Source: a virus (Duplodnaviria; Heunggongvirae; Uroviricota; Caudoviricetes). From it: 21,023 nt of DNA. Positions 3,089-21,023 of the stretch are shown here, piece after piece (positions within the stretch are counted from its first letter, which is position 1; the number at the start of each line of letters is the position of its first letter). The stretch spans positions 1 through 21,023 of the IMG/VR virus record IMGVR_UViG_2778261176_000007; one strand, 5' to 3'. Under the pieces are notes generated by a model, which had not been told where the DNA came from, ran no database searches, and was given only the letters and a program-made list of their open reading frames with translations. Made by a program: the position numbers and the translations under genes.

Positions 3089-3317
3089 AATGAACACCGT
3101 TTATTACGCATAACAATCTCCTTACTATTGAAGATTCACACATAATAAACCATTTAAGGATAATAGTTACCTCAAAACGCTGTATTTCTACCTTCTACGG
3201 CAATGAAAATTTCGTTCAGAAAATGGTCTAGTGTACCTCTCAGTCACAATTAAAGAAGAAAGAAGCCGAACTTACTTCGTAATAAGCAAGCCGGCTACTA
3301 AGATTAATCCTCAATAT

Positions 3318-6074: not shown

Positions 6075-6177
6075 GTTAAATCTCCAGATAGTCGCAGCAC
6101 CCGTTGCGCCGCATATCTGGTTATTCTATTACCTGAAAAACCACATATGGATAGAAAGACTGTAAATACGAATAGAT

Positions 6178-6194
6178 ATTACCTTTCGGGTAAT
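6178..6194. promoter_or_regulatory. 17-bp palindromic operator-like site ATTACC-TTTCG-GGTAAT (copy 1 of 5)
   Basis: Perfect 6-bp inverted arms with a 5-bp spacer. Located in the divergent region between the tailspike gene and the small Ant-C-like gene. Confidence 0.55.
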
Positions 6195-6232
6195 TTGCAA
6201 AACGTGCTGGATAGCAAACAAATTATTTGCTA

Positions 6233-6248
6233 CTGTATAAATATACAG
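6233..6248. promoter_or_regulatory. LexA (SOS) box CTGT-ATAAATAT-ACAG
   Basis: taCTGTATAAATATACAGtt differs from the LexA consensus CTGTATATATATACAG at one central position. It sits 22 nt upstream of the ATG at 6270 and contains a TATAAAT -10-like hexamer. Confidence 0.6.
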
Positions 6249-6269
6249 TTATTGCATGGAGAAGATAAG

Positions 6270-6527
6270 ATGCAGCAGTATCACTATCCACTGGAAGACG
6301 GATTTACCGAAAGGATTCACACGCCGGGAGGCGTCAGATCACTAGTGGAGGGATCGCACTTGATGAAATTACTCCGGGATCTCGATAAGGATGGATTTAA
6401 TGTCGATGGCCCACTTGCCGAACTGACTGCACTGATTAACTACGTCACCAGCTCACAGATGTCTATGCGGGATCTGCAAACACATCTCGACTATTGTGCC
6501 GAACAATTACGAAAACAAACCAGATAA
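6270..6527 (+). CDS. Small stand-alone protein homologous to the C-terminal domain of the two Bro-N antirepressors (candidate SOS-controlled antirepressor-like factor)
   Basis: 85 aa from the internal ATG (the track ORF starts at 6147 but would cover the operator palindrome and LexA box). GGAG SD 9 nt upstream. Alignable by eye to the Ant C-termini (LAELTALINYVTSSQMSMRDLQTHLDY versus AAELTTMFCYIVGVSKCLRDIQTHAEY). Confidence 0.5.
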   Translation: MQQYHYPLEDGFTERIHTPGGVRSLVEGSHLMKLLRDLDKDGFNVDGPLAELTALINYVTSSQMSMRDLQTHLDYCAEQLRKQTR

Positions 6528-6556
6528 GGTTTGCAATTACCAAGTGGAGTGCTTAT

Positions 6557-6575
6557 ATTTACCTTTGCGGTAAAT
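6557..6575. promoter_or_regulatory. Palindromic operator-like site ATTTACC-TTTGC-GGTAAAT (copy 2 of 5), at the start of the ant1 leader
   Basis: Perfect 7-bp arms. About 45 nt upstream of the conserved structured leader element. Confidence 0.55.
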
Positions 6576-6600
6576 TTACATCGCACTCCTCTTGTGCCAT

Positions 6601-6685
6601 AGTAATCGGGCACTGGCAAAATCCAGTGCCGGGATTGGCGTCCCGGATTACTAAAAGGCGCATTCACCGCGCAAGCGGTTTTTTT
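6601..6685 (+). ncRNA. Structured leader RNA element upstream of ant1 (c4-like antisense-RNA candidate): closing stem, two hairpins, and a hairpin plus U7 terminator
   Basis: Stem AGTAATC (6601-6607) pairs with GATTACT (6646-6652). Hairpin A is GGCACTGG-caaaat-CCAGTGCC (6609-6630). Hairpin B is CCGGGA-ttggcg-TCCCGG (6629-6646). Terminator-like ACCGC-gcaa-GCGGT followed by T7 (6666-6685). The stems are conserved in the inverted ant2 copy while the loops differ (compensatory pattern). Confidence 0.4.
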
Positions 6686-6842
6686 ATGCGTATAGCACGG
6701 CCACATTCGTATTATGGTGGGCTGTGTGGGGGCACCGAAAGGTGCGCCGGGTCCTTTTAGCCGGTTACGCCAACCCTGCACAGCTCACCACCAACCGATT
6801 GGCGTCGGTAGTGGTGATTAACCAGACTAAAAGGTAACCACT

Positions 6843-7538
6843 ATGACAGCTACAAAAAGCACGTCCATTTTTTCTTTCGAATCCCAAGCCGATATACGAG
6901 TAATCGTCATTAATGGTGAGCCATGGTTTATCGCTTCAGATGTTTGTCGGGCTATAGGCATAGCAAACCATCGAGATGCTGTTCGAAAACTTGATGATGA
7001 TGAGAAGGGCGTCGCTTCAACCGACACCCCTGGCGGTGAGCAAGAATCGATCATCATCTCCGAGTCAGGCCTCTACACACTGATCCTCCGCTGCCGCGAC
7101 GCAGTGACACCAGGCACTATCCCCTACCGCTTTCGTAAATGGGTTACAGGTGAGGTTCTTCCTCAGATCCGCCGCACCGGAAGCTACATTAAAAACTCGC
7201 TCCCGCAGGAAGAACGCATAAAGATGGTTGCCGACCAGGTAGCCAACGCCACGGCGTCAGCAGTAATGCAGGCGATGAAGATAGAGAACAAAACCTACAG
7301 CGCCCCGCTGAAGCCCGGCTACCGCAGTTTGATTCACTCGCCGTCTGGTGTTCTCGGCCTGACGGAGAACTCACTGCTGATGAATCTGCTGAACCAGTTA
7401 CAGGAAGACGGGCACGACGTATCGGGCGCGGCGGCGGAACTGACCACCATGTTCTGCTACATCGTCGGTGTGAGTAAATGCCTGCGTGATATCCAGACCC
7501 ACGCGGAATACATCAACGACAAGGCAGGGGTCTTCTGA
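6843..7538 (+). CDS. Antirepressor-like protein with Bro-N N-terminal domain (ant1)
   Basis: 231 aa. N-terminus IFSFESQADIRVIVINGEPWFIASDVCRAIGI...ESGLYTLILR is a Bro-N-type motif. AAAGGT SD before the ATG. The C-terminal half is nearly identical (about 95 percent nucleotide identity) to the inverted paralog at 8652-9344. Confidence 0.85.
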   Translation: MTATKSTSIFSFESQADIRVIVINGEPWFIASDVCRAIGIANHRDAVRKLDDDEKGVASTDTPGGEQESIIISESGLYTLILRCRDAVTPGTIPYRFRKWVTGEVLPQIRRTGSYIKNSLPQEERIKMVADQVANATASAVMQAMKIENKTYSAPLKPGYRSLIHSPSGVLGLTENSLLMNLLNQLQEDGHDVSGAAAELTTMFCYIVGVSKCLRDIQTHAEYINDKAGVF

Positions 7539-7547
7539 CAGAACGGC

Positions 7548-7570
7548 GGCACAGGGATGTGCCTTTAAAT
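7548..7570 (+). terminator. Putative terminator of ant1 (hairpin GGCACA-ggga-TGTGCC followed by TTTAAAT)
   Basis: 6-bp stem about 10 nt after the ant1 stop. The T-tract is interrupted, so this is weakly supported. Confidence 0.35.
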
Positions 7571-7604
7571 AATTCTGTACAGATTGCAGGTGAATAGCGT
7601 ACTA

Positions 7605-7619
7605 TTACCCCAAAGGTAA
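7605..7619. promoter_or_regulatory. Palindromic operator-like site TTACC-CCAAA-GGTAA (copy 3 of 5), upstream of the AT-rich two-gene cassette
   Basis: Perfect 5-bp arms with a 5-bp spacer, about 120 nt upstream of the ATG at 7737. Confidence 0.5.
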
Positions 7620-7736
7620 GAAAGTTGATTTGTAACATTTTAGTTTGTAGTTACCGTGATGGTTTTGCTGCAGAAAGTTAACTAGTCAAAATCACACCGT
7701 ATGTAAGTCACGTCTGTTCCCGTATGGGAGGATGAT

Positions 7737-7955
7737 ATGTTTAAATTTGATATGCAACTCAACCAAAACTATGCCTCTTTTTACCATCCAGAAACTGGTA
7801 AAGCTGTTTTCGTTGACTCTTTCGATAATGAAGAATTTGATATCAGAATTGGGACCCTACGCCAAAGTAAGCATGTTGCTACTGTACGTGCATCCAATGA
7901 TGATGAATTAAATCAAAAAATAAGTGAGGCGACCTCCCGTTATCTATGTCTATAA
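7737..7955 (+). CDS. Hypothetical protein, 72 aa (first gene of AT-rich moron cassette)
   Basis: Strong SD GGGAGG 7 nt upstream of the ATG. AT-rich codon usage unlike the flanking genes. Its stop overlaps the start of the next ORF (ATG at 7946, TAA at 7953-7955). No recognisable domain. Confidence 0.55.
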   Translation: MFKFDMQLNQNYASFYHPETGKAVFVDSFDNEEFDIRIGTLRQSKHVATVRASNDDELNQKISEATSRYLCL

Positions 7956-8323
7956 CAGAACAACAACTCATTGATCTTGAGGATGAGATTAACGAGATCT
8001 TGCAAGAAGATGCGGCAAGAATTCACTTTTCATTTCACGCAGCATATGAACGCCTGAACGACGAGAGGAACAAACCGCCAATTACTCTTGCTGAGCTTGA
8101 AGATGTGTTTAAATCGTTTATATCTGCACATCTGCAGACTGTTTTGGATTTTGCTGAAGGTACAACTTTCACCATAAAGTGCAACAAAAGCGCCCTTCAT
8201 TTTCCTTGCGCCATTGTACACGAAAGAGAGTTTGGGAAAACGTGGGTTATCCAAAACGTCATTACAGCCATGAGGAAAGTGGGATTCAAGTCTAAAGATT
8301 CTATTATCCTCGAAGTTAATTAA
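7946..8323 (+). CDS. Hypothetical protein, 125 aa (second gene of AT-rich moron cassette)
   Basis: Translationally coupled to the 72-aa ORF. Acidic N-terminal half. Followed immediately by an intrinsic terminator. No recognisable domain. Confidence 0.6.
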   Translation: MSITEQQLIDLEDEINEILQEDAARIHFSFHAAYERLNDERNKPPITLAELEDVFKSFISAHLQTVLDFAEGTTFTIKCNKSALHFPCAIVHEREFGKTWVIQNVITAMRKVGFKSKDSIILEVN

Positions 8324-8344
8324 GCCCGCACTGAGGGCTTTTTT
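8323..8344 (+). terminator. Rho-independent terminator of the two-gene cassette
   Basis: Stem AGCCC / GGGCT with loop GCACTGA, followed by TTTTTT (8339-8344). Directly after the stop codon at 8321-8323. Confidence 0.7.
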
Positions 8345-8416
8345 ATGGACGAAACAAAAGTCAGTGCTACACTCATTGACGCCACATTGAGGTGGCTTAT
8401 AGATGGAAATTTCACA

Positions 8417-8578
8417 ATGAAAAAAGCATTTGCTGCACTGTTCGTTTTGTTGTCTCTGGTAGCTTCAACTCAGGCCTTTGCCGGTCGTTGTCAGCACGAC
8501 AGCGATACTGCCGCTGACGGCTCCCGCTGCGGTGGGCGTTCTGCGGACTCCCGCCCGGGCGGCGGTGGCATTCGTTAA
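8417..8578 (+). CDS. Small secreted Cys/Gly-rich peptide (about 53 aa), hypothetical
   Basis: Signal peptide MKKAFAALFVLLSLVASTQAFA then GRCQHDSDTAADGSRCGGRSADSRPGGGGIR. Weak SD. The upstream in-frame ATG at 8345 lies inside the preceding terminator T-tract, so 8417 is the more plausible start. Confidence 0.3.
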   Translation: MKKAFAALFVLLSLVASTQAFAGRCQHDSDTAADGSRCGGRSADSRPGGGGIR

Positions 8579-8600
8579 AAACAAGGCCGCGAAAGCGGCC
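8577..8600 (-). terminator. Rho-independent terminator of ant2 (minus strand)
   Basis: Hairpin GGCCGC-gaaa-GCGGCC (8585-8600) followed on the minus strand by TTGTTTTT. About 50 nt downstream of the ant2 stop. Confidence 0.5.
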
Positions 8601-8651
8601 TGTGACATGTCACGCTAGTTTCGTTTTGCACGTCCCTGTGCCGACGTTCTG

Positions 8652-9344
8652 TCAGAAGAACCCTGCCTTGTCGTTGATGTATTCCGCGTGCGTCTGGATA
8701 TCACGCAGGCATTTGCTCACACCGACGATGTAGCAGAACATGGTGGTCAGCTCCGCCGCCGCACCCGATACGTCGTGCCCGTCTTCCTGTAACTGGTTCA
8801 GCAGATTCATCAGCAGTGAGTTCTCCGTCAGGCCGAGAACACCAGACGGAGAATGAATCAGGCTGCGGTAGCCGGGCTTCAGCGGGGAGCTGTAGGTTTT
8901 GTTCTCTATCTTCATTGCCTGCATCACTGCTGATGCTGTGGCGTTGGCTACCTGGTCGGCAACCATCTTTATGCGTTCTTCCTGAGGGAGCGAGTTTTTA
9001 ATGTAACTTCCGGTGCGGCGGATCTGAGGAAGAACCTCACCTGTAACCCATTCAAGAAATCTGAATGCTCTCGTTCCCTCAGTCATTGCCTCTTTGCAAC
9101 GCAGAATAAGGATGTAGAGACCTGATTCTGAAACGATGGATAGTTCTTGTATTCCACCAGGGGTCTGTATTGAATACAGCCCCTTTTTGTTCCAGCCTTT
9201 TTTATCAAGTTTTCTCGCTTGTGTAACATCAATATTCAAAGCATTGCACACATCTTTGGTGACAAACCAAGGTTCTCCGTCAATCATGAACATACGGATC
9301 TGGCAGGATGACTCAAAGGAAAAGATGGAAGGTTTGGTATTCAT
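8652..9344 (-). CDS. Antirepressor-like protein with Bro-N N-terminal domain (ant2), inverted paralog of ant1
   Basis: 230 aa from the ATG at 9342-9344 (the track ORF starts 15 codons upstream at a TTG). AAAGGTGA SD. The Bro-N domain has diverged from ant1 while the C-terminal 130 aa differ at only 2 residues. Confidence 0.85.
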   Translation of the reverse strand: MNTKPSIFSFESSCQIRMFMIDGEPWFVTKDVCNALNIDVTQARKLDKKGWNKKGLYSIQTPGGIQELSIVSESGLYILILRCKEAMTEGTRAFRFLEWVTGEVLPQIRRTGSYIKNSLPQEERIKMVADQVANATASAVMQAMKIENKTYSSPLKPGYRSLIHSPSGVLGLTENSLLMNLLNQLQEDGHDVSGAAAELTTMFCYIVGVSKCLRDIQTHAEYINDKAGFF

Positions 9345-9498
9345 AGCGATCACCTTTGTAGTTAGGTTAATCACCACCGCTGAGACCAATCAGATGGTGG
9401 TGAACTGTGCAGAGTTGGTCTTACCGGCTACAAAGGAACCCGGCGCACCTTTCGGTGCCCCCACACAGCCCACCATAGAATAGGTGCGCTTTACACAT

Positions 9499-9584
9499 AA
9501 AAAAACCGCTTATGCGGCATATGTGCCTCTGTAGTAATCCGGGAGACCAATCCCGGCACTGGATTTTGCCAGTGCCTGATTACT
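9499..9584 (-). ncRNA. Structured leader RNA element upstream of ant2 (twin of 6601-6685), c4-like antisense-RNA candidate
   Basis: Same closing stem and two hairpins as the ant1 leader, with loop B changed from ttggcg to ttggtc. Terminator-like CCGC-ataa-GCGG followed by U7 on the minus strand (9499-9517). Confidence 0.4.
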
Positions 9585-9611
9585 ATGGCACAAGAGGAGT
9601 GCGTTGTAAAT

Positions 9612-9626
9612 TTACCTCAAAGGTAA
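9612..9626. promoter_or_regulatory. Palindromic operator-like site TTACC-TCAAA-GGTAA (copy 4 of 5), at the start of the ant2 leader
   Basis: Perfect 5-bp arms. Equivalent position to copy 2 in the inverted arm. Lies in the divergent region between ant2 and the 9774 gene. Confidence 0.5.
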
Positions 9627-9773
9627 TAATAGACGCAGGTGAATATCAAAATCAACCACATTTGGTTAAGGTGTGTAAAAGAGCCACCAGCGAGAAATTG
9701 TACCGCGATGTAAAATAACGAGAATCTGCTGGCTTACAACCAGCGATGTTTCAAATTTGTCACTACTATCAAC

Positions 9774-10172
9774 GTGCCATTCCACGGCGTAGAACTTTAT
9801 GTTGTCAATCACAACGGCGAACCGTACACCCCAATGAAACCTATCGTTGAGGGAATGGGGCTAGACTGGAAATCTCAACATAAGAAGATTTCTCAACGCT
9901 TCTCGAAGGGTATGGTGGAAATCACCATACCTTCTGCCGGTGGGGTGCAAGCCATGATTTGTATGGCTTTACGAAAATTGGCAGCTTGGTTGAACAGCAT
10001 CAGCCCTAACAAAGTCCGCCCTGAAATCCGCGATAAGGTAATCCAGTATCAGGAAGAGTGTGATGATGTGCTCTATGAGTACTGGACTAAAGGCCATGTG
10101 GTTAACCCGCGCAAAGCTAAAAAGGTGTTGCCGGGTAAAATCACTACTGAGCAACAGGAGGTATACACTTAA
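9774..10172 (+). CDS. Phage antirepressor-like protein (P22 AR N-terminal-like domain), hypothetical
   Basis: 132 aa. The motif LRKLAAWLNSISPNKVRPEIRDKVIQYQEECDDVLYEYW resembles antirepressor N-terminal domains as I recall them. The first in-frame start is a GTG with no clear SD, so the start is uncertain (an internal ATG lies 20 codons in). Confidence 0.5.
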   Translation: MPFHGVELYVVNHNGEPYTPMKPIVEGMGLDWKSQHKKISQRFSKGMVEITIPSAGGVQAMICMALRKLAAWLNSISPNKVRPEIRDKVIQYQEECDDVLYEYWTKGHVVNPRKAKKVLPGKITTEQQEVYT

Positions 10173-10196
10173 CACTTGATCACATTAGCACAAAAT

Positions 10197-10213
10197 ATTA
10201 CCTTTAAGGTAAT
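10197..10213. promoter_or_regulatory. Palindromic operator-like site ATTACC-TTTAA-GGTAAT (copy 5 of 5), immediately upstream of the membrane-anchored moron
   Basis: Perfect 6-bp arms. Ends 20 nt before the ATG at 10233, so it overlaps the expected promoter/RBS region. Confidence 0.55.
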
Positions 10214-10232
10214 GTTATTGTGAGGAAAAGCA

Positions 10233-10760
10233 ATGGAAGTTTTCTTAATCATCGTCGGCATCGTGATTATTAATTTTGTTTTTTTATTTATTGCAAAAAA
10301 ACAAAAAAGTAACGATATGCATGTTTCTACAACTGATGATCTTACCTTTGTAGAGCATGCACTGAATGTATCAGGATATAAACTCACTCCATACGGAGCT
10401 GGTGTATCACTCATGTCTTTAAGTAACGGTTTTTCAAAAGAAGAAACATTTTCACATATAGCTTTGATGGCTCTTTCTCAACACGCCAAAGTCGCAGGTA
10501 GTGACGCAATTGAGCTTAGTAAAGTTAGCATTCGTGCGATGTCGATAGCTGAAAACTTAACTAAATTATTCAGGAAAGGTCTTATTCGATCAGAAATATA
10601 TAAAAATGATTTGAATGCTATCATGGCTGTCAGCACAATTAATGAAAACCAAGAGGATTGGATTTCCATAGTTCTGGAAAGCAATAGCACATCTAACAAG
10701 GATACTATTGCTTTGCCGATAAGTGCAGAAGCTTCTTTAGAAGCCATAAACAGCCATTGA
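10233..10760 (+). CDS. Membrane-anchored hypothetical protein (moron; candidate superinfection-exclusion or abortive-infection factor)
   Basis: 175 aa. N-terminal TM helix (VFLIIVGIVIINFVFLFIA) followed by KKQK, then a soluble domain. GAGG SD 7 nt upstream. Strongly AT-rich coding sequence. Convergent with the structural operon. Confidence 0.65.
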   Translation: MEVFLIIVGIVIINFVFLFIAKKQKSNDMHVSTTDDLTFVEHALNVSGYKLTPYGAGVSLMSLSNGFSKEETFSHIALMALSQHAKVAGSDAIELSKVSIRAMSIAENLTKLFRKGLIRSEIYKNDLNAIMAVSTINENQEDWISIVLESNSTSNKDTIALPISAEASLEAINSH

Positions 10761-10781
10761 AAGAACTCCAATAAATATTGA

Positions 10782-13700
10782 TTAACGCATCACCGGATCC
10801 ACTTGGTTTATTAGTGGCGCAATCCAGAACAGGTTATTGCCGGGTATCAGGGTTCGGACATTATGCACAATACGATCACCGGCATCACCATTCAACACTC
10901 CTGCGGTCACATCAATGATGCTATCCGCAAGACCAAATGACGGTCCGAATAGAGATCCTACGAATCCACGACTGGCATACCTAGACTGTGTGCCAGTGCC
11001 AAATAAAGCCCCCAGCCCAACAGCACCACCAGTAGCCTTTTCAGCCATGTTGTTATATTCCATCAATGGCCCAAGAATACCGGATCTATCTATACCCTCA
11101 AGCACCAGCTTCTCTGGTGACCAGTCAACATTTTTCCCTTTCGATGCTTCTTTAAGCGCATAGACCAGTGAGCCAAGAGCAATCTGAAATGCAGTGCCAT
11201 AATAAAATTGCGCAGTTCCTTCCTGTAACCCACCAAGTAGCGCACGGTTGTATGAAGCCGTTGTGAATGATTTAAACTGAAATATCGTTCGCCCCATTGG
11301 AGTACTCGCCCATAAAGGTGTGTCACCAATACCGGGGGTGATGATAGTGTTATTAACGTCTTTCAGAACCGCTGACTGGAATACTCCGGCAACGTACTGA
11401 TCGTCCCATTTATCAAAGTTACCAATGTGCCATCCATCAATTACCTCACCATGTTTCTCGAACTCACTGCGAATACGCGCAGCCATATTGTCGTTGATAC
11501 CGAGTTTTGCCATGCGACGTGCAGAAAACGCACCAGACAAAATACCGTCTGACGTGAGCATTCCGTTCATGGATTTGTTTATGTCATTAAATCGATCCAT
11601 GAGTGTCAGCTTGCCGAAGGCATCAGTAATTCGCTCCATTCCTGCTTCGACTGCTGTTGTCCTGGAAGAACTGTCAACAAGATCACCAATTGCACGAGAA
11701 CGTGAATGTAGTACAGTTTCCAATCCAATCCCCATCTTCAACATCTCTTCTTTGCTGGCCTTAAATGCCGGTGATTGGGATATCTGAGAAGCATAGCCTT
11801 TCATGGAGTTACGGAAACCATTAACCATAACCCCTCTGGCCAGATCTGGAATAGCTGATACTGTCATTCCACCGAGTTTGGTCGTGAAGTTCACATCCCG
11901 CAGAAAAGCGCCAGCACGAACAAAAAACGAAGACGGGTCATCAGGCATACCATATGTACCAACAAGACGATCGCGTAATGCTGTTATGTCTCTGAGATCA
12001 TTTGCTCTTGATTTTGAAAGTCTGGACTGTTCTTTCCGTAATTCCTTTTCGTACTTTCGCATTAATGAATCGAGTTTACCCTGAGGAACAACTTCACCAT
12101 TGCTCTCATAACGTGCTTTCAGATTTGCCACACTTTCGTCATATTTCGCCTTTATTTTTTCAGGCACTTCCCGTAACAGACTGTCATATTCGTCCTCAAT
12201 TAATTGCAGACGCTCTGTCATAGTTCGTTTGCCAAATGTTCTCGTCAACTCAATTTCTGCTGCCGCTTCACGGATATGACGTTGTAGAACGTAATTCACA
12301 TCACTTTCGAGATAATCCCTGATAAGACTATCAGGCACATTTAATGTTCTTTCTTTCGTACTACCTGCAGCTTTTACAGAAAATACGCTGACAAAATCCT
12401 GTGGAACCTTAGCACCAGTAATTTTATTAATTACGATATCCGCTGCAATTTCAGCATCCTCAGGATCCAGTGTTTTATTGCCTCTCGACCACCAGTCAAC
12501 CAAAATACGTCGAAATTTATCGCGTTCACTGATTATTTTTCCAACTTTATATATACGTGGGAAATAGCTTGCCTGGCCTAATGCTTTCAGTCCTTCATCT
12601 GGCGGCAATAAACCAAGCTTTTGCATTTCAACCTTCACCCGATTTAATACAGTTCGCATCGCCTGCGCCGTTTCCTGAACAACAGGATTAGCATGCACAT
12701 CACCGCTTCGCATAGCATTCCCAACCTGCTGACGAAATGAATCAAAACTCATGTCACCACCATCAGCTTTATACTTTGCGTATGCCTGTTTATTTCCGAC
12801 AACAACAGCAGCTTCTTCACGCTGCCATCCACGTGTACGGGTTTCTACAGCTACCGGTGTTTCAATCCCCCTTTCATTTCCTTTAAGGGTGAAATTATTT
12901 TCGGCTAACTCCAGCGTTGTTTTTCGCACTGTCTTGGACGGAGACTCCATTAACCTTGTCAAAGGAGTAAGATAGCTCCCTGCTTTCCATGCAGCCTTTC
13001 CAACCACCCCACCGGAAACAGGGGTTAAATCATCCAGAGTCGCTGTATCAATTTTCATAGCACCAACACTACCACCATCAGAAAGCGAAGCGGCAGCCCT
13101 GTCAGTCGCTGATGTAATGCTCATATTATCAAGAGCATCAGCAACCTCACGCGTGGCTGCAGCCCGGACGGATGGCGAAAGCGCAACACCAGCACTGGCA
13201 AACACGCCGCTCATCATCGCACCCGCTGCAACGTGAGCGGCACTTTCACCCCATGAGCGTGTTATTTGCTGATTATTCAGCACAACCTCGCTTAATGCTG
13301 TACCGGCTGCACCAATCGCAATCTGTGAGCCAATACGCGCCAGTGCCCCTCCTTGAGCACCTGGGATAAACATTGACGCAACAGTAACCGGGTCAAAAAG
13401 CATCGCTGTTGCACTGGCAATTCCACCAGCTAAGCCTGCTTCAGAGATAAAACGCCGATCTTCATTTTCATCATCTATCTGCTGCTTAATCCACGCCGTT
13501 TCCTCTGGCGATCGGGAATCTGCAAATTTCGCCCCCCAGTATTCATAACCGTGCAACTCATTTTTATCAGCATATGGGTTATAACCCTCGACCGGTTCAA
13601 ACTGTCTGGCAGGACGGAAAAAACCAGCCAGAATATTGTTCTGTCGTATTGCTGCGGCAAGCAATGAAGGCTCTTTGGGACGAGGTTCAGGGTTCTTACC

Positions 13701-13805
13701 TTCTGGCGGATGCACATCAAAACTCTGTTCATCAGGTTCAGGAATGGCGAGACCAGCAGAAATAAATCCGTTATTGTTTGATTCAGATACAGGATAGAAC
13801 GGCAT
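10782..13805 (-). CDS. Internal virion / DNA-ejection protein (T7 gp16-position, 1007 aa)
   Basis: Last gene of the structural operon. Its start overlaps the stop of the upstream 902-aa gene at 13805. Gly/Ala-rich segments and long coiled-coil-like central region. Assigned by size and synteny with the T7-like gp11-gp16 order. Confidence 0.7.
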   Translation of the reverse strand: MPFYPVSESNNNGFISAGLAIPEPDEQSFDVHPPEGKNPEPRPKEPSLLAAAIRQNNILAGFFRPARQFEPVEGYNPYADKNELHGYEYWGAKFADSRSPEETAWIKQQIDDENEDRRFISEAGLAGGIASATAMLFDPVTVASMFIPGAQGGALARIGSQIAIGAAGTALSEVVLNNQQITRSWGESAAHVAAGAMMSGVFASAGVALSPSVRAAATREVADALDNMSITSATDRAAASLSDGGSVGAMKIDTATLDDLTPVSGGVVGKAAWKAGSYLTPLTRLMESPSKTVRKTTLELAENNFTLKGNERGIETPVAVETRTRGWQREEAAVVVGNKQAYAKYKADGGDMSFDSFRQQVGNAMRSGDVHANPVVQETAQAMRTVLNRVKVEMQKLGLLPPDEGLKALGQASYFPRIYKVGKIISERDKFRRILVDWWSRGNKTLDPEDAEIAADIVINKITGAKVPQDFVSVFSVKAAGSTKERTLNVPDSLIRDYLESDVNYVLQRHIREAAAEIELTRTFGKRTMTERLQLIEDEYDSLLREVPEKIKAKYDESVANLKARYESNGEVVPQGKLDSLMRKYEKELRKEQSRLSKSRANDLRDITALRDRLVGTYGMPDDPSSFFVRAGAFLRDVNFTTKLGGMTVSAIPDLARGVMVNGFRNSMKGYASQISQSPAFKASKEEMLKMGIGLETVLHSRSRAIGDLVDSSSRTTAVEAGMERITDAFGKLTLMDRFNDINKSMNGMLTSDGILSGAFSARRMAKLGINDNMAARIRSEFEKHGEVIDGWHIGNFDKWDDQYVAGVFQSAVLKDVNNTIITPGIGDTPLWASTPMGRTIFQFKSFTTASYNRALLGGLQEGTAQFYYGTAFQIALGSLVYALKEASKGKNVDWSPEKLVLEGIDRSGILGPLMEYNNMAEKATGGAVGLGALFGTGTQSRYASRGFVGSLFGPSFGLADSIIDVTAGVLNGDAGDRIVHNVRTLIPGNNLFWIAPLINQVDPVMR

Positions 13806-16513
13806 TATTTAGATCCCCACGAAAAGTAATCTTTAAATTTGTCCATACGTTCGTTATGCAGGCGCTGATACTGCTCATCCAGAGCGCGATGCTTGTCTTT
13901 GAAGTTTCGTATAGCCTGTCCACGCATAATTTCTTCCTGCTCGTGCTGCTCCCGTTCCTGCTGCATTTTCTTATAAGGTTCCCAATCTTCTAGTGATGGC
14001 CCCCAGCGCATCTGTCTTCCATGCTTGTCATAAAATAAATCATCCCTCGTAATACCATTTTTATCTTTTGTTCTGATCACAACTGAATAAAGCTTATCTC
14101 TCGGAGTTGATAAGTCAGGAACGAGAATCAACTCACCTCCAACCAGTGAGCGTGGCTTATTCAGTCCCAATGCACCAGCCTCAGTTGAAGGTCGGTTAAA
14201 TGAAGGAGCCGGTTTATGTAAGTCATCGCCATACATGATTTTTTCTTTTTCAGCCTTCCATTGCGCTGCAATCCAGCCTGACGGCCCATATTGATAAAGC
14301 GCCTCCGGTGCATATTTCATAAACTGTGCTTCCCCGTTGACCTCGCTGATACTCCAGGTGCGGGCTATCTGCTGGTTGGTCATTTGCTTCGCTACGTCAG
14401 CGTTACCACCAGCAAGGCGATAGTTAACGTCATACAGCATCTGATAGTCATTGCGAAAGAGCGCTGCTTCCGGCGTCTGGTCATCCGCAGACGGATCCCA
14501 GCGAAGCCAATGAGCCATATTGCTGACAGCAGAATTGGCTGCGCTGTCACGCTCTTTTTTGTATTCTCTTGTACTCTGAACAGATGAGAGCTGCGCCCTT
14601 AGTGCATCTGTCTGGTTGTATGTCTTACTCTGCGCTTCCACAATAGCAGCATCAGAAGACATCCCTGCATCAGTTAGTTGCTTAACAGTCAGATAAAAAC
14701 CCTGCATATCCTTCGGCATATTTCCAATAGATGCATTGTCTGTTTCATATAACCGACTAAACAGTTCCGCCGCATTTTTAACCACTTCCTGATTGCTGGA
14801 TCTGGATACTGCTGAAAGCTGCGTGATGACCTGCGAAGGCATGATGCCAGTCTGAGCCACAAGCCGAACAACCCCATCATGAGTGGAGGCATCATTAATA
14901 CGAAAGTTCTGCGCCATTTCTGTGTAATCAGCAGCTTTCTGCATTGATTTGTTGCTTGGGTCTAATTTTTCACCTATTGTCAGCGCCTCATTGAATCTGC
15001 GTGAATCACGTTGCGCCTGAATTGCTTCATTTGATCGCTGAAGCAATGCAGACAATTTTCCGTAAGCATCGAGTTTTAACGCATAGTGAGGATCGTTAAC
15101 CTCAGGCTTCACTTTCTGCATTTCTTCTTGCTGCTGAGAAGGAGGTAAATACTGAATTGCCTGGAATATTCTCGCGTTATCAATCGCTATATCCAGTTGA
15201 TTGATTATTTTATCTGCATTTTTTCCATACCCCCTGATGATAGTCTCCTGAGCCGGTATATAATCTGGAACCTCACCGTTATATAGCTGGGCCATGGTGT
15301 TATTAATAGCTGGCTCAAGCTGTTCTAATATTAACTTCCTTTGCTTTTCTATCTGACTATTAGCAAGGTTATCTATTTGATAAATAGTCAGCGGATCCAT
15401 TCCAGTTTTATTTTTTCTATATCGGGAAAGCCACCCTTGTGTTTCTGATGGAAGATTTCGGATAAATTCTTCTTCTGATATTTCACCTTTACGTGGATCA
15501 CCGACTTTGGCGATCAGTTTATCCACGTTACCCATCCCCCAGTTATATGCTGCTCCGGTCAATATTTCGGAGCCGTACTTACCATACAGTTGATTTACAT
15601 AGTCACTGGCGAGCATTTCATGCTGTTGTTCGTCCGTAGGGTTGTATTTAACGCCACGCTTGGCCGCCAGTTCTTTCCCTGTGCCCGGCATTAACTGGTA
15701 TTTCCCCTGGGCTCTCTCTCCAGAAGATGTTATCGGTCCTTCAAGAAGACTACCATCAGGATTAAAATGTCGATCACCTGATTCAACAAGGCGTATGGCA
15801 CGCATGTCCATGCCTCCAGAATCATTTTTCTGAAACAGACCATTTAGCCATCCTTCTGGATTGGCAGCGGCATAATTCTTCGCCCGCATTTCTGTGGCAC
15901 GGCGATCATCACTTTCTATTTCTTCCAGAATGCGTTCTTGTGACCATCCCCTGGCAGCTCCATATCTGGCAATGGCTACCATTCTGGAATTTCTGGCTAA
16001 AGTGGCAGTTTGCGGGTCATTCCAGGCATCCGCTTCATTTTGTATCCATAATTTTCTCGTTGCCTGATATTGCTCATCTTCATAGGCATTTGTCTGCCCT
16101 ATCTCATGTCTGAGAACTCCAGTACTGAACTGAATTTTCTGTGTTCTGGCTTGTTGCAAAAACATATTTCTTGCTGCTTCATCAGTCAATGAAGCAGCTA
16201 TTTCTTCCACATCCTGATCAAATCCAGATATGTACTCTTGCCCCTTACCAATCGCATTTTTGCCTTGTTGTGCATAAAAACCGGTTTGAGGGTTATAAAG
16301 ACGTTCATTGCTGCGCTGATTAAGCTGAAGGATGGCATCCTGAGACAATGCAACATTCGCTTTCTGCCTGGCTTCACCATATGCCACCGCATACTGATCT
16401 GCGACATTCGCCAGCACCTGACCTGCTTGAGGAACATCGAAGGTCTGAAAACCACCGGTTTGCACACCACGACTTTGCACCTGGCGTCCGGATGTAGTAG
16501 GAACAACAGGCAT
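13805..16513 (-). CDS. Internal virion protein with lytic transglycosylase (SLT) domain (T7 gp15-position, 902 aa)
   Basis: SLT motifs at about residues 235-340 (nt about 15494-15811): RLVESGD with a catalytic-type Glu, GKYQLMPGTG, and AAYNWG. ATG at 16511-16513, coupled to the upstream gene. Confidence 0.8.
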   Translation of the reverse strand: MPVVPTTSGRQVQSRGVQTGGFQTFDVPQAGQVLANVADQYAVAYGEARQKANVALSQDAILQLNQRSNERLYNPQTGFYAQQGKNAIGKGQEYISGFDQDVEEIAASLTDEAARNMFLQQARTQKIQFSTGVLRHEIGQTNAYEDEQYQATRKLWIQNEADAWNDPQTATLARNSRMVAIARYGAARGWSQERILEEIESDDRRATEMRAKNYAAANPEGWLNGLFQKNDSGGMDMRAIRLVESGDRHFNPDGSLLEGPITSSGERAQGKYQLMPGTGKELAAKRGVKYNPTDEQQHEMLASDYVNQLYGKYGSEILTGAAYNWGMGNVDKLIAKVGDPRKGEISEEEFIRNLPSETQGWLSRYRKNKTGMDPLTIYQIDNLANSQIEKQRKLILEQLEPAINNTMAQLYNGEVPDYIPAQETIIRGYGKNADKIINQLDIAIDNARIFQAIQYLPPSQQQEEMQKVKPEVNDPHYALKLDAYGKLSALLQRSNEAIQAQRDSRRFNEALTIGEKLDPSNKSMQKAADYTEMAQNFRINDASTHDGVVRLVAQTGIMPSQVITQLSAVSRSSNQEVVKNAAELFSRLYETDNASIGNMPKDMQGFYLTVKQLTDAGMSSDAAIVEAQSKTYNQTDALRAQLSSVQSTREYKKERDSAANSAVSNMAHWLRWDPSADDQTPEAALFRNDYQMLYDVNYRLAGGNADVAKQMTNQQIARTWSISEVNGEAQFMKYAPEALYQYGPSGWIAAQWKAEKEKIMYGDDLHKPAPSFNRPSTEAGALGLNKPRSLVGGELILVPDLSTPRDKLYSVVIRTKDKNGITRDDLFYDKHGRQMRWGPSLEDWEPYKKMQQEREQHEQEEIMRGQAIRNFKDKHRALDEQYQRLHNERMDKFKDYFSWGSK

Positions 16514-17088
16514 CAGTAACCTCCTATTTTGAATCGGGAGTCAGAATTCATAAAACCTGAGTTAGATAACATTGGCGTCCCACCACTAGATGTACTTCCT
16601 TTAGAGAACGGACTCCACGTCCCACCAAACATCTGGTACGCACCGTATGCCTTCAGAGGCGCAGTGAGCAATGTTGTTGCTGCTCCCACATTCCCCTGTT
16701 TACGGGCTGAACTGGCTTCTGCTTTATAGTTGGCAGCCTGAACCTGATAACCGTAAGCCTCGCGTTGCGCGTTATTCACCGTCGTCAGCGAATCAAGAGC
16801 GCCAAACTGGGCAGTGTCGCCAAATATATCCAGCGCGTTACCTGTAGATAAATCAGCGCCGGTAGCCCCCATTGTCGCCGCCTGTGTACCAAGCCGCTGT
16901 CGGGTCTCTCTGCGTCGTTGCTCAGCTTCAGCGTTACCTCTGTTTATTGCATCATTTGCCTGAGCTGTGGCTATATCTGCGTTCGCTTCTGCAACCTTCG
17001 AGGCATACTTTCCCTGTTGGTACTGGGTGTATGCCTGAATGCCACTCATGGCGAGCATTGCGCCACCAGCAATAACCGGATCGCACAT
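16513..17088 (-). CDS. Internal virion protein (T7 gp14-position, 191 aa)
   Basis: GGAGAG SD upstream. Start overlaps the upstream stop (TAATG). Ala/Gln/Gly-rich. Size and position match gp14 (196 aa in T7). Confidence 0.6.
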   Translation of the reverse strand: MCDPVIAGGAMLAMSGIQAYTQYQQGKYASKVAEANADIATAQANDAINRGNAEAEQRRRETRQRLGTQAATMGATGADLSTGNALDIFGDTAQFGALDSLTTVNNAQREAYGYQVQAANYKAEASSARKQGNVGAATTLLTAPLKAYGAYQMFGGTWSPFSKGSTSSGGTPMLSNSGFMNSDSRFKIGGY

Positions 17089-17552
17089 TATTTTCTCTCC
17101 ATGTGAAATCTGTGGAAATTAAGACCAAGAGCACCATAAGGCGCGGCTTCTTCAAGCCTGAATCCAAGCCAGTGCAGCCATGCTTTGGCAACATGGTTTC
17201 GCTCGTCGACGTAGTTTTCCAGGCGCGGATAAACTGCCAGCATCTGCTGCAATACAGGGCGGCAGTGGCGAAGAAATGTCTTCTGATATTTTTCGATACG
17301 GCTGGTTCCGACCAGCCAGGGCGTACCATTGCCACCGATCATTGACGCCGGAGATACGCCAAACATGGTTACCAGTTCTCCGTTCGCAAATCCTGACCAA
17401 GCCATAGTCGCAGTACGCAGACCAACACGCAGCGCATCTTCGGTAGTCATCAGCGATACCGCATACAGTTCGTCAATATCAGCCTGACGAACATCCGGCA
17501 AAATCATCTGAAGATGCTCTTCGGTAGCGGGAATAATTCGAACATCGATCAT
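17088..17552 (-). CDS. Internal virion protein A-like (T7 gp13-position, 154 aa)
   Basis: Coupled on both sides (shares 17552 with the upstream gene and 17088 with the downstream one). Assigned by synteny only. Confidence 0.5.
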   Translation of the reverse strand: MIDVRIIPATEEHLQMILPDVRQADIDELYAVSLMTTEDALRVGLRTATMAWSGFANGELVTMFGVSPASMIGGNGTPWLVGTSRIEKYQKTFLRHCRPVLQQMLAVYPRLENYVDERNHVAKAWLHWLGFRLEEAAPYGALGLNFHRFHMERK

Positions 17553-20023
17553 CAGAATCCCCCAACAGTAAGGCGAGGAATAACGGCAAGAACAGACAGC
17601 GGCAACGGGTCAAGCTGACGGATTCTTACACGTCCGTTTTTGCCCCAGTTACTGTCCAGTTTTACTTCTACTTTTCCGGTAGCGTCATCAACAGGATCAT
17701 CGTAGAACTCGAATTCACGCTGTGGATATTCGTACCATTTACCGCCGGGCGTAGTCGCCCAGATGCCGCGACTGGCATTCACAACCAGAGTAACGGACGG
17801 GATCACCTGTTTTTTGTCCAGCAGCGTTTCCTGTCCGTTAATGTTGATATCCAGTGTTTCGAATTCAGCAGTTATTGGCAGGCCGATGTGCACTACAGCC
17901 CCCGGAGATTCCAGCGTGACGGCACCTCCGGAAACCACTTTCTGTGGTTCCACGTTCGCATCAGAGAGGATGTTTACGGTCTGGCCTTCAAGATGAGACA
18001 AGCCGCCAAATGTCCGGCGCGCCATCTGCCAGTTCGTGGTGGCCACATTCCTGAGGGATGGCGGGACGTTCCTGTTAGCACGAACCACTACAGCGGTATT
18101 GCTGGTTACAGAAATAATGTCGCAACGTAATTCTTTTGACACTTCATCGCCAGTATCAGGATCAGTTCCGGCATAAGGGAACTGTAGTTGCGCGCCGACA
18201 TCACTACTGGTGAAGTACGCACCACCAGAAATACTGATTGTATATTCCGCGCGGTAATCCCATTCACCAGAACCACCAGTGATGGTCATCGTTCTGTCAG
18301 ACGTATTTCTTCCATCATAGCTAAGGCCAGAATCAACAAAGAAAGCATCTTCATCGCTGGTAAATAAACGGCTGGACAGTCGCTCTATGTATCTCACTGT
18401 TTGCCCGTTAACGGTTCGGTTAACGACGAAATACACCGCATCTTCATTGCCTTCGCTGATACTGCATGTGCTTTCATATTTCCCGGTACTGGATTGTGGT
18501 GCCCATGCAAAAACCTGCTGATCACGCAAATAGGTCATCACCAGCAATTTACCGTCATCACGAATGCAGAAGGCGCTGGAGTAAGGGACAATCGAGAAGC
18601 ACCAGTCAACAATGCTGTGCTTCTGAAAAAGATGATTGGCAAGGATGGTCAGGTCGTTCCCCTGATAGCCGTCAACATCGAATGAGTAGGCCAGATCACG
18701 GACAACACTGCCTTTCTCCTGGACGAACAGAGCAATATTCGCCACGGCAATTGGTGGGACATTGCTCGAGCCATTTGATCCCTGAGAGCTGAATGCAAAT
18801 GATGATGGGGTAAGCACTTTGTTCTGGTCGCCAGTGATGACGTACTCACCTCCGGAAGTCAGCGCCACCAGCGAACCAACATCAATCAGGTGACGGATCT
18901 CATTAACCTGACGCCCGGCATAGGTGTAGATAATTCTGTCGTCATCCTGCGTAGGATTGCTTTTGCCAAAATCCTTATAATCCCCGGTACGGCTGGCCCA
19001 GATAGTCTGAGGGAACGCAGTCGATGCGGCGAAGTAAAGGCGTTGTTGATAATAAACAACAGTGCCAGGATAACCGTTAATACTGTTCCAGGCATATTTA
19101 GCCCATTTATAGCTGGCATTATCCTCGCCAACTACCTGCGAAGGGATATAGGAAATCACCTCAGCAGTTGCAGTAGTGCCATTTACAGCAGTTATACGGG
19201 CAATGCCAAAACCACTGTGCAGATACTCCCACTCAATGCCAGTATCATCATCACCGGATCCGCCCCAGCCATCCCATGATGTGCCTTCTGTATGCGAAGG
19301 GCGCAAAGTGCCTGTTTTGCCTGCTGTAACGGCGCGATAGTAGTTACTGTCTGCACGGCGAATATCGCCAATCGACGTACTCTTACTGGTTTCCCATACC
19401 GGCACAGAATCCACTGCAGGCTGTTCCAGATAGAACAATTTGCCTACCTGCTCCGCGCCAAAAATTGAGGCGCTTGCCGTTAACGTAATTGTCCCGGTGC
19501 TGGCGCTGGCATAAACCGTCACTGACTCGTCAATATTGATATCTTCAAATGGCCCGTTCTTCGTTACCACATCAACCAGTTGCCAGTTGTCATGAGCATA
19601 TCTGCGCAGCTCTTTCGGCGGGTATGCCGGGTGAACCAGCGTAAGCACGTCGGCGCTTTGCGTGAATTTAATTCGGAACAGATCGGCTTCAGTATATGGC
19701 GTGGCAATTTCATAAATAACATTGCTGCTGTTCAGCACCAACGCACCATCTTTGATAACGCGCATGTACTGGTGTCCGAACTCCAGAGCATAGGTCTGAA
19801 CCGTCGAGAACTGGAACGGGATCAGGCGGCATTTCCGATTTGGGTATTTGGCGGCACCGACAAAACGCGTACCAGGTCGATTCTCAACGCCGCCATACTG
19901 CCGCACGATAAAGTTATCGCACTTGCGCAATGCCACCTGGTACTTCGCCATGTCGATACGACCGTACAACGACGGTCCAATCTCACCACCGGCAAAGCTG
20001 GGCTGTATCCAACTGATAGCCAT
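17552..20023 (-). CDS. Tail tubular protein B / nozzle (T7 gp12-like, 823 aa)
   Basis: The N-terminus MAISWIQPSFAGGEIGPSLYGRIDMAKYQ parallels T7 gp12 MALISQSIKNLKGGISQQPDILRYPDQ (from memory). Size is close to gp12 (794 aa). Coupled to its neighbours. Confidence 0.7.
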   Translation of the reverse strand: MAISWIQPSFAGGEIGPSLYGRIDMAKYQVALRKCDNFIVRQYGGVENRPGTRFVGAAKYPNRKCRLIPFQFSTVQTYALEFGHQYMRVIKDGALVLNSSNVIYEIATPYTEADLFRIKFTQSADVLTLVHPAYPPKELRRYAHDNWQLVDVVTKNGPFEDINIDESVTVYASASTGTITLTASASIFGAEQVGKLFYLEQPAVDSVPVWETSKSTSIGDIRRADSNYYRAVTAGKTGTLRPSHTEGTSWDGWGGSGDDDTGIEWEYLHSGFGIARITAVNGTTATAEVISYIPSQVVGEDNASYKWAKYAWNSINGYPGTVVYYQQRLYFAASTAFPQTIWASRTGDYKDFGKSNPTQDDDRIIYTYAGRQVNEIRHLIDVGSLVALTSGGEYVITGDQNKVLTPSSFAFSSQGSNGSSNVPPIAVANIALFVQEKGSVVRDLAYSFDVDGYQGNDLTILANHLFQKHSIVDWCFSIVPYSSAFCIRDDGKLLVMTYLRDQQVFAWAPQSSTGKYESTCSISEGNEDAVYFVVNRTVNGQTVRYIERLSSRLFTSDEDAFFVDSGLSYDGRNTSDRTMTITGGSGEWDYRAEYTISISGGAYFTSSDVGAQLQFPYAGTDPDTGDEVSKELRCDIISVTSNTAVVVRANRNVPPSLRNVATTNWQMARRTFGGLSHLEGQTVNILSDANVEPQKVVSGGAVTLESPGAVVHIGLPITAEFETLDININGQETLLDKKQVIPSVTLVVNASRGIWATTPGGKWYEYPQREFEFYDDPVDDATGKVEVKLDSNWGKNGRVRIRQLDPLPLSVLAVIPRLTVGGF

Positions 20024-20628
20024 CAGGACAACCTCGCAATGGTAAACTCGTCAACCGGTGGCTGTGGTTCCTGTGATTCATTCTGGCTATGCGAGCCAGC
20101 ACTAAGAATCACGCGATTGTACATATTGAGGGCAAACGTACCGAGGTCTGCATTCCCAGTCAGCGCCATGTTAATAGCTGCCGCAAGACGCCAGGCCAAC
20201 GCCTCCATAAAAATGGCATCAAACATGTTCACATCTGTAACGCGAGAGACATACTTGAGCCATGCCTGCGGCTGGTCTGTGTAGATCAATTTTCCTGTTC
20301 CGTTGGTGTCTGCACCAACTTCGTACTGAACACGCATTGCTGCTGTTGGATTGCGTACACCAGGAAGCATAATTTCAGTAATGCGCAGACAATCGGACGG
20401 GTACTGATACGCATATTCCCAGTCAGGCGGTGGATTGCTCGTATCTGCAAGCGCCACGCGTTTGGTAGCAAAGTTCCAGTCAAAATCAGAAAGCACAGCA
20501 TCACGGCAGGCCTCAAAGTGCAGCGAACATTCCCCCGCTTCCTTGCTGGCTTCCGTCAGGCTGTTAATGCTGCGGCTATTGCCAATATTGGACAGCGCAC
20601 GATTACAGATCTCTACTACAGAGGCCAT
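20023..20628 (-). CDS. Tail tubular protein A / adaptor (T7 gp11-like, about 201 aa)
   Basis: The N-terminus SVVEICNRALSNIGNSRSINSLTE...DWNFA parallels T7 gp11 [20 protein letters not shown]...GWTFN (from memory). The track start is a GTG at 20629-20631; the adjacent ATG at 20626-20628 is the more likely start. Confidence 0.7.
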   Translation of the reverse strand: MASVVEICNRALSNIGNSRSINSLTEASKEAGECSLHFEACRDAVLSDFDWNFATKRVALADTSNPPPDWEYAYQYPSDCLRITEIMLPGVRNPTAAMRVQYEVGADTNGTGKLIYTDQPQAWLKYVSRVTDVNMFDAIFMEALAWRLAAAINMALTGNADLGTFALNMYNRVILSAGSHSQNESQEPQPPVDEFTIARLS

Positions 20629-21023
20629 CACTCACCTCCGTTACCGTACAGAGTTTCAGCCGCTGATTTTTCTACATCCCCGGAAACAGGAGCGATCGCC
20701 ATATCAGTGATCTGCAGATCGGCGCTGCGATTAACACCATCGTCAGTTTCTCTGGCAGACAGGCCTCGAATAACAGCCTTTGCAGTTATCATCACTTCTG
20801 TTCCGACGCCCTGAGGTTGCGCCTTCAGCTTATTCAATGTGTCGTTATTAAGAGTGATGCACAGCCCCCACGGGTATTCATCGCGAGTTCTGGTTTCTCC
20901 GCTCTCATCCTGGTAGCTGTCAGTGCCGGTTTTGAGGTTTATGAAGTGGTCAACAAAAACTGGCCACCGCGTTAGAGTTTTTCCAGTATCGATTTTCCGA
21001 TTCGTTTGGGGGTAACCCACCAT
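20628..21023 (-). CDS. Hypothetical phage structural-module protein (131 aa)
   Basis: Its ATG is exactly at the window edge (21021-21023). Overlaps the gp11-like start. No recognisable domain. Position upstream of the tail adaptor suggests a head/neck accessory protein. Confidence 0.5.
   Translation of the reverse strand: MVGYPQTNRKIDTGKTLTRWPVFVDHFINLKTGTDSYQDESGETRTRDEYPWGLCITLNNDTLNKLKAQPQGVGTEVMITAKAVIRGLSARETDDGVNRSADLQITDMAIAPVSGDVEKSAAETLYGNGGE

Follow-up and report, generated by a model that had tools for sequence, protein, structure and literature searches.

The stretch of DNA analysed here (the window; 21,023 nucleotides, positions 1 to 21,023 of the virus record IMGVR_UViG_2778261176_000007) contains, between positions 10,782 and 21,023, a block of minus-strand genes that we assign with high confidence to the late operon of an integrated temperate podovirus of Escherichia coli. 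The segment codes for the tail hub and the internal-core ejection proteins of an epsilon15-like, Uetakevirus-related element of the TL-2011b type. Its module is an ancient homologue of T7 gp11-gp16 carried in a lambdoid temperate genome that depends on the host RNA polymerase (RNAP), and does not belong to an autographivirus. A preliminary description made from the letters alone had recognized the T7 gene order and concluded on a temperate autographivirus-like phage. That interpretation is partly supported: it was right about the homology and about the location of the SLT domain, and wrong about the autographivirus.

Gene order and nearest relatives

The block is composed of the following features (aa, amino acids):

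20628..21023, minus: capsid staple/decoration protein of the epsilon15 gp10 type (Pfam PF21628 Gp10-like, E 2e-51)
20023..20628, minus: tail adaptor (tubular tail protein A), T7 gp11 fold, epsilon15 gp11 type, 201 aa
17552..20023, minus: tail nozzle (tubular tail protein B), T7 gp12 homologue, 823 aa
17088..17552, minus: internal virion protein A, T7 gp13 homologue, 154 aa
16513..17088, minus: internal virion protein B, T7 gp14 family, 191 aa, its final ~30 codons being part of the downstream cassette
16607..16615: mosaic junction inside the gp14-like gene, at about codon 160 of 191; the phiV10 match starts at 16607 and the epsilon15 match at 16615
13805..16513, minus: large helical internal virion protein at the gp15 position, with an internal SLT domain, 902 aa
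15452..15844, minus: SLT (family 1 lytic transglycosylase) domain, residues ~224-354 of the 902-aa protein
10782..13805, minus: internal virion protein D, T7 gp16 family without the N-terminal SLT domain, 1007 aa

The T7 order and sizes noted in the preliminary description are confirmed, since the open reading frames (ORFs) of 201, 823, 154, 191, 902 and 1007 aa are all intact and the gp11, gp12, gp13, gp14 and gp16 positions each match their T7 counterpart specifically in the profile comparisons described below. The six junctions are all one-base stop-start overlaps (TGATG/TAATG). Because of these overlaps, and because a promoter/terminator scan of positions 10000-21023 found no more sites than in shuffled sequence, the block suggests a single translationally coupled operon; the scan fits one uninterrupted operon and by itself proves nothing. 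The adaptor ORF (20023-20631) yields 202 aa from a GTG and 201 aa from the ATG at 20628. RefSeq labels read "phage connector family protein", "phage tail protein", "virion core protein, T7 gp14 family" and "transglycosylase SLT domain-containing protein". An NCBIfam scan of eight proteins matched nothing, and a Kyte-Doolittle scan of the core proteins was uninformative, with no segment above 1.6.

The relatives of this block leave little doubt about its affiliation. In a megablast search of positions 10782-21023 against phage genomes, Escherichia phage TL-2011b matches at 96.8% identity over 96% of the query (10786-20944). A match at 98% DNA identity, confined to window positions 16607-20944, is given by phiV10 and some ten similar E. 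coli phages; over this part, Salmonella phage epsilon15 is 75% identical. By BLASTP, the six proteins are 91-99.5% identical to TL-2011b gp33-gp38 (95.6% for the 1007-aa protein and gp38), and those at the gp11, gp12, gp13 and gp14 positions are 85, 88, 62 and 77% identical to epsilon15 proteins, the last value covering only residues 1-163 of the 191-aa protein. A further reference is a 98%-identical prophage of E. coli TUM9803 (NZ_CP135671; hereafter the related prophage), which occupies the interval between guaA and yfgI. Of 5426 complete E. coli genomes, 500 contain the adaptor-to-gp14 block (16620-20620) at a coverage of at least 80%, nearly always with 95-99% identity. TL-2011b has been treated as a Uetakevirus (PMC11522302). 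As judged from its sequence, the element is integrated and belongs to the epsilon15/phiV10/TL-2011b group; its module is of an ordinary type, already sequenced and already explained.

The staple protein at the upstream end of the block is 95% identical to TL-2011b gp32 and 42% to epsilon15 gp10, and its counterpart in the related prophage is named "capsid staple protein" by RefSeq. Its ORF extends for 131 aa up to the window edge, with a homologous core of 107 aa. Similarity to TL-2011b and to related E. coli prophages stops at 20944, the last ~80 bp of the window being unlike them. Because of this difference, no start is present where TL-2011b has that of its staple gene, and the ORF runs on to an ATG at the window edge (131 versus 107 aa). 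The terminal segment (20941-21023) is a 98.8% match to Shigella phage SfII sequence that bears the annotation "terminator".

An element of this kind could also be a defective remnant, in which the structural genes are intact and particle formation has been lost. Such a reading is compatible with ours on the identity of the genes and differs from it on their activity. It draws on the truncated antirepressor of the accessory island (9774-10172), a pseudogene in a related genome, and on the insertion sequences found in several related prophages. However, the six structural ORFs are full-length, their coupled junctions are intact, the 91-99.5% identity to TL-2011b proteins is preserved, and the lysis cassette and the spike are intact as well, so that we consider a defective element rather unlikely.

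Kinship to T7 and the autographivirus question

The resemblance to T7 is real but remote. BLASTP of the six proteins against T7 gp8-gp17 gave one match only, between the SLT domain and the gp16 N-terminus, and none for gp11-gp14. Since the SLT domain alone was retrieved, pairwise searching is too insensitive at this distance. Families were compared all-versus-all with hhalign, using on the T7 side small alignments of six Autographiviridae (T7, gh-1, SP6, phiKMV, RSB1 and megetsur) and on the epsilon15 side alignments of the window with epsilon15, Carin-1, Pseudomonas phage AF, Alteromonas phage ZP6 and a Vibrio podophage. In the resulting matrix, significance is confined to the diagonal. All off-diagonal pairs have E >0.15 except the gp15-position family versus gp16 (E 0.0015), and this single match is the SLT domain. 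The diagonal matches are:

gp11: probability 82%, E 1e-5
gp12: probability 98%, E 8e-14, 680 columns
gp13: probability 92%, E 6e-7
gp14: probability 57%, E 1e-4, full length
gp16: probability 99.7%, E 3e-27, 847 columns, query 69-1008 versus template 180-1399

Structure and family assignments were also collected for the individual proteins. The AlphaFold2 (AF2) model of the adaptor (predicted local distance difference test, pLDDT, 86) was matched by Foldseek to the Carin-1 connector 8ck1_E (E 2e-16, template modelling (TM) score 0.83), to LME-1 9efk (E 2e-9), to T7 gp11 7box_M (E 3e-6, TM 0.57) and to a series of autographivirus adaptors (E 3e-6 to 1e-4, TM about 0.55). By sequence, the adaptor matches 8ck1_E with an E of 4e-26; phmmer and a 25-sequence adaptor profile run against PDB sequences reached Carin-1 and LME-1 but not T7 gp11, and because they stopped short of it, structure and hhalign are needed for this protein. 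The nozzle matches PDB 8ck1_A, "Tail Nozzle", by phmmer (E 2e-217). The 154-aa protein falls into phrog_308, in common with T7 gp13, and the 191-aa protein matches Pfam PF24072 T7_gp14 (E 4e-8, 33.7 bits versus a gathering cutoff of 27). The 1007-aa protein matches phrog_342, the PHROG of T7 gp16, over residues 22-1005 and profile positions 199-1225 (E 2e-207), and retrieved nothing from the PDB by phmmer. The name of the phage behind 8CK1 was taken from the title of the PDB entry ("Carin 1 bacteriophage tail"), a literature search on this PDB code and the nozzle found no paper, and a study of the marine-podovirus tail-spike Dpo31 mentions neither 8CK1 nor the nozzle (PMC13317679).

The pattern found here equals the one published by Hardies et al. 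2016 (PMC4819975), who already established the T7 kinship of the tail genes of the epsilon15 group. These authors described T7-like synteny of tail and internal virion protein (IVP) genes for this group, united the T7 and epsilon15 groups of tubular tail protein B (nozzle) by PSI-BLAST with strong matching of hidden Markov models (HMM-HMM), and identified an IVP-D homologue (epsilon15 gp17), leaving IVP-C unconfirmed. Similarly, epsilon15 was listed by Swanson et al. 2022 (PMC8954989) among podoviruses with an operon of gp14/gp15/gp16 type and a T7-like core stack.

These homologies also speak for a temperate autographivirus, i.e. a T7-family virus turned lysogenic, as T7 homologues occupy 5/6 structural positions and provide the spike anchor, and the 1007-aa protein shares the T7 gp16 PHROG. 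In addition, the TL-2011b portal belongs to Pfam Head-tail_con, which we take to be the T7 gp8 portal family. Nonetheless, tblastn with T7 RNAP, DNA polymerase (DNAP), gp4, gp8, gp10 and gp19 returned nothing significant from four targets (the window, the 12-kb capsid/portal/terminase side of the related prophage, TL-2011b and epsilon15), with no match for T7 RNAP at E<1, and the annotation of the remainder of the related prophage includes no RNAP, T7 DNAP or primase-helicase. The early region of the relatives is lambdoid. In the related prophage, guaA is bordered by a tyrosine integrase gene, and there are a CI-like helix-turn-helix (HTH) repressor, RecT/RecE-type recombination genes and lambda-P/DnaT-like replication genes; TL-2011b has an integrase, an HTH repressor, RecT/exonuclease VIII and a replication initiator, and its host flank carries yfgI/yfgH as in the window. 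Inspection of the rest of the prophage, proposed in the preliminary description and carried out here on relatives, thus yields the integrase and the repressor but no T7-type RNAP. Furthermore, the capsid, protease and cement proteins are of epsilon15/BPP-1 type and not of T7 gp9/gp10 type. Homology searches had been named as what could overturn the T7 assignment, and they place gp11-gp14 with epsilon15 (62-88% identity) versus no BLASTP match to T7. With close relatives that are epsilon15-like (96.8% identity to TL-2011b) and devoid of RNAP, DNAP and gp4, a lysogenic T7-family virus is highly improbable, and this claim has to be given up. Its premise, that a T7-type structural module in an integrated element points to a temperate autographivirus, had already been revised in the field. 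Because ancient T7-like tail and ejectosome genes are common to several podovirus groups, temperate ones included, the structural module alone is no sign of Autographiviridae.

A P22-like module of tail and ejection genes, in which gp4 and gp10 form the hub and gp7, gp20 and gp16 are ejected, can be dismissed even though one very broad "transient tail" homology group has been drawn to include P22 as well (PMC4819975) and the accessory island holds a P22-type antirepressor N-domain, because the adaptor model fits T7 gp11 (E 3e-6) and gives only E 1.2 with 8u10_m (the sole P22 tail-complex chain listed), no P22-like phage occurs among the megablast matches to phage genomes, and the 902- and 1007-aa proteins with their SLT domain are unlike the small P22 ejection proteins, said to be without transglycosylase (PMC8954989).

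The SLT-bearing protein and the ejection cassette

The 902-aa protein carries a Pfam SLT domain at residues 263-342 (E 4e-7), and its residues 224-354 align by pairwise BLASTP with residues 13-142 of T7 gp16 (E 2e-7). The motifs ES, GxxQ and AYNxG are kept (E244-S245, 270-276 and 322-326, respectively), and E244, S245, Q273 and Y323-N324-W325-G326 are invariant across 14 homologues. Following the motif assignment of family-1 transglycosylases, in which the glutamate is T7 gp16 E37 (established knowledge and PMC8954989), E244 is a candidate catalytic residue. As for the 1007-aa protein, it aligns to gp16 only from profile position ~180-199 onward and is on this ground a gp16 without its SLT head. 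The preliminary description was therefore correct in locating the SLT domain in the gp15-position protein and not at the gp16 N-terminus as in T7. This location is no novelty, the epsilon15 gp15 record being already annotated with SLT and gp36 of both SP6 and phiKMV being muralytic at the gp15 position.

Apart from this domain, the 902-aa protein belongs to phrog_1044, and its N-terminal 250 aa are 42% identical to epsilon15 gp15, the rest being not alignable. Its AF2 model has a low confidence (pLDDT 60, predicted TM-score (pTM) 0.40), and Foldseek lists T7 gp15 (6yt5, 7k5c) in third and fourth place with a non-significant E of 0.14; for these two reasons, we make no claim of gp15 homology from the model. 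The protein is placed at gp15 by position, size and helical content only.

Downstream of gp14, the window departs from the better-known members of its group. The mosaic junction separates a 98% phiV10-like upstream part of the operon from a downstream part with nucleotide similarity of TL-2011b type only. After gp14, the window and TL-2011b encode two proteins (902 and 1007 aa in the window; phrog_1044 and 342) and epsilon15 three (842, 634 and 918 aa; phrog_992, 1145 and 684), as does phiV10. The 5.7-kb cassette (10782-16513) reaches a coverage of 80% or more in just 45 E. coli genomes, of the roughly 500 with the tail block. The 902-aa protein nevertheless has widespread homologues among Salmonella, Citrobacter, Yersinia and Enterobacter genomes. 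Among isolated phages, the next-closest 1007-aa homologues are found in Klebsiella phage Kp4865-1 (39%), which is filed under Uetakevirus and shares the two-protein arrangement with the window and TL-2011b, and in ~32-kb marine Vibrio podophages (32%), with weaker C-terminal matches in the autographiviruses RSB1, RsoP1IDN and megetsur and in Pelagibacter podophages. By sequence comparison, the 1007-aa protein is an unambiguous member of the T7 gp16 family, unlike epsilon15 gp16 and gp17, which stand much further from T7 gp16. Single epsilon15 gp15, gp16 and gp17 sequences gave nothing significant in hhalign against the T7 gp15, T7 gp16 and 1007-aa families, and phrog_684 (the epsilon15 gp17 family) touches residues 809-1000 of the 1007-aa protein (E 4e-12).

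Small marine podophages (~32-38 kb) hold the closest non-enterobacterial relatives of this protein. Vibrio phage 1.138.O (5547-14174) and Alteromonas phage ZP6 (3080-12333) show the order adaptor, nozzle, small IVP(s), large IVP and gp16-like protein. In addition, a gene for PurZ (diaminopurine synthetase) is present in ZP6.

An exchange of this cassette in a phiV10-like operon, in which the last ~30 codons of the gp14-like gene and the genes at the gp15 and gp16 positions would have been replaced with a left boundary in the gp14 C-terminus, is plausible though unproven, and we give it even chances. It would be a modest addition to the known mosaicism of podoviruses. If true, the gp14 C-terminus would be a natural module boundary of podovirus ejectosomes, and the swap would offer a test, set up by nature, of the contacts between ejection proteins that have to co-vary. 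The exchangeable cassette is in our opinion the only point of some research value here, as it could help to define how ejectosome proteins interact and co-evolve.

Some of these observations weigh against our assignment. Since two proteins follow gp14, versus three from other PHROGs, the element is not a textbook epsilon15 in this region. The family of the 902-aa protein has a non-significant hhalign match to the T7 gp15 family (E 0.16, in an alignment that includes SP6 gp36 and phiKMV gp36). Moreover, the integrase, repressor and replication genes fall outside the window, so that near-identical relatives, and not this element, are the source for its temperate lifestyle and its lack of an RNAP.

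The mode of action, including the stoichiometry, location and activity of the proteins, may be proposed by homology to T7 and epsilon15. The 201-aa adaptor would form a ring on the portal, the 823-aa nozzle would close the channel, and tailspike trimers would dock via their conserved N-terminal anchor. The 154-, 191-, 902- and 1007-aa proteins would be packaged as a core stack above the portal. Upon adsorption, the spike would degrade surface polysaccharide and the core proteins would be ejected, the gp14-like protein going to the outer membrane. The 902-aa protein would cut peptidoglycan with its SLT domain and probably build a periplasmic conduit, and the gp16-like 1007-aa protein would span the inner membrane and receive the DNA.

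The value of these results lies mainly in annotation, where the appropriate names for the genes are adaptor, nozzle and internal virion proteins A, B, C?/SLT and D, in a prophage of the epsilon15/TL-2011b type. The block should not be taken as evidence for a lysogenic T7-family phage.

Integration site, tailspike and comparison with known systems

The remainder of the window contains the host flank, the lysis genes, the tailspike and an accessory island:

1-516 and 532-1071: yfgH and yfgI, E. coli host genes, chromosome left of the prophage right end
1111-1139: hairpin AAAAACCCTCTGTAGTAACAGAGGGTTTT, candidate attachment (att) core, between yfgI and the phage Rz gene at the prophage-host boundary
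1291-3097, minus: lysis cassette with an Rz-like gene, a GH19 endolysin and two holins
3318..6074, minus: tailspike, 918 aa, with an N-terminal anchor, an exchangeable receptor-binding part and a C-terminal Peptidase_S74 (Pfam)
6100..10771, mixed strands: accessory island of 4.7 kb between the last ejection gene and the tailspike
6843-7538, plus, and 8652-9389, minus: Bro-N proteins (Pfam)
9774-10172: truncated P22-type antirepressor, N-domain only (Pfam P22_AR_N), a pseudogene in a related genome

The window is E. coli chromosome, in which the phage lysis genes adjoin host yfgH and yfgI and integration is visible on one side. The claimed integration beside host genes stands, with yfgH/yfgI at 1-1071 and, at the other end of the related prophage, an integrase adjoining guaA. 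A contaminant or non-integrated contig is ruled out by the contiguity of the two host genes with the lysis genes. The hairpin at 1111-1139 has a ~27-bp near-copy at the guaA-integrase junction of the related prophage (~9133-9159 of the analysed piece of NZ_CP135671) and is probably an att core inside a terminator hairpin. The "complete genome" of TL-2011b itself holds host chromosomal genes at 41360-44784 (homologues of yfgI and yfgH, the latter with the wrong label "DNA methyltransferase", and pdeF-like sequence); because these are included, the record is a prophage with flanks and not a packaged genome.

The tailspike has, as the preliminary description stated, an N-terminus of gp17 type: it matches the T7 gp17 N-terminal family in hhalign (probability 97%, E 4e-11), and controls versus other families were negative. 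It does not directly follow the operon and lies outside the block, with 4.7 kb of accessory genes in between. The anchor is 71% identical to residues 1-161 of epsilon15 gp20, its residues 1-203 are 95% identical to phage ZX5, it also matches residues 1-184 of Dpo31, and such an anchor is conserved in all Uetakeviruses (PMC11522302). The receptor-binding part has a low GC content (36-40%) and is common to the unrelated phages SD2 (59%) and a Vectrevirus (45%). Peptidase_S74 is a C-terminal intramolecular chaperone. Related prophages have endosialidase or GH28-type spikes instead at this locus. In the accessory island, there are also several small ORFs without family.

Compared with known systems, the window shares with T7 the gene order, similar sizes and profile or fold matches for gp11, gp12, gp13, gp14, gp16 and the gp17 N-terminal anchor. 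It differs in that the identity of gp11-gp14 is below BLASTP detection, that its relatives have a temperate lambdoid backbone and no phage RNAP, and that the SLT domain, with catalytic motifs common to both, is internal to the gp15-position protein whereas it is at the gp16 N-terminus in T7. SP6 and phiKMV are similar in having a peptidoglycan-degrading domain on the gp15-position protein (gp36 in both) and not on gp16. However, this domain is a lysozyme and not SLT according to their records ("lysozyme domain-containing protein", "internal virion lysozyme motif"), and both phages are virulent, RNAP-encoding autographiviruses. The nearest solved structures are those of the Cobetia phage Carin-1 (PDB 8CK1) and of the Legionella phage LME-1 portal-tail (PDB 9EFK), which come from marine and Legionella hosts; Carin-1 has a single very large protein after its lysozyme-bearing gp33. 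With epsilon15 and phiV10 (Uetakevirus), the window shares the order staple gp10, adaptor gp11, nozzle gp12, gp13, gp14 and SLT-bearing gp15 and, as judged from its near-identical relatives, the temperate, integrase-encoding lifestyle, but epsilon15 has two small genes before the tailspike and not a 4.7-kb island. Finally, TL-2011b (NC_019445 / JQ011317), a prophage of enterohaemorrhagic E. coli O103:H25, has the same six genes in the same order (gp33-gp38) and the same cassette of two large proteins (905 aa with SLT, and 1004 aa). It differs in the content of the accessory island, in the gp14-like C-terminus, which diverges past residue 163, and in the receptor-binding domain of the spike, of which the N-terminal 173 aa alone match the window spike, at 66%.

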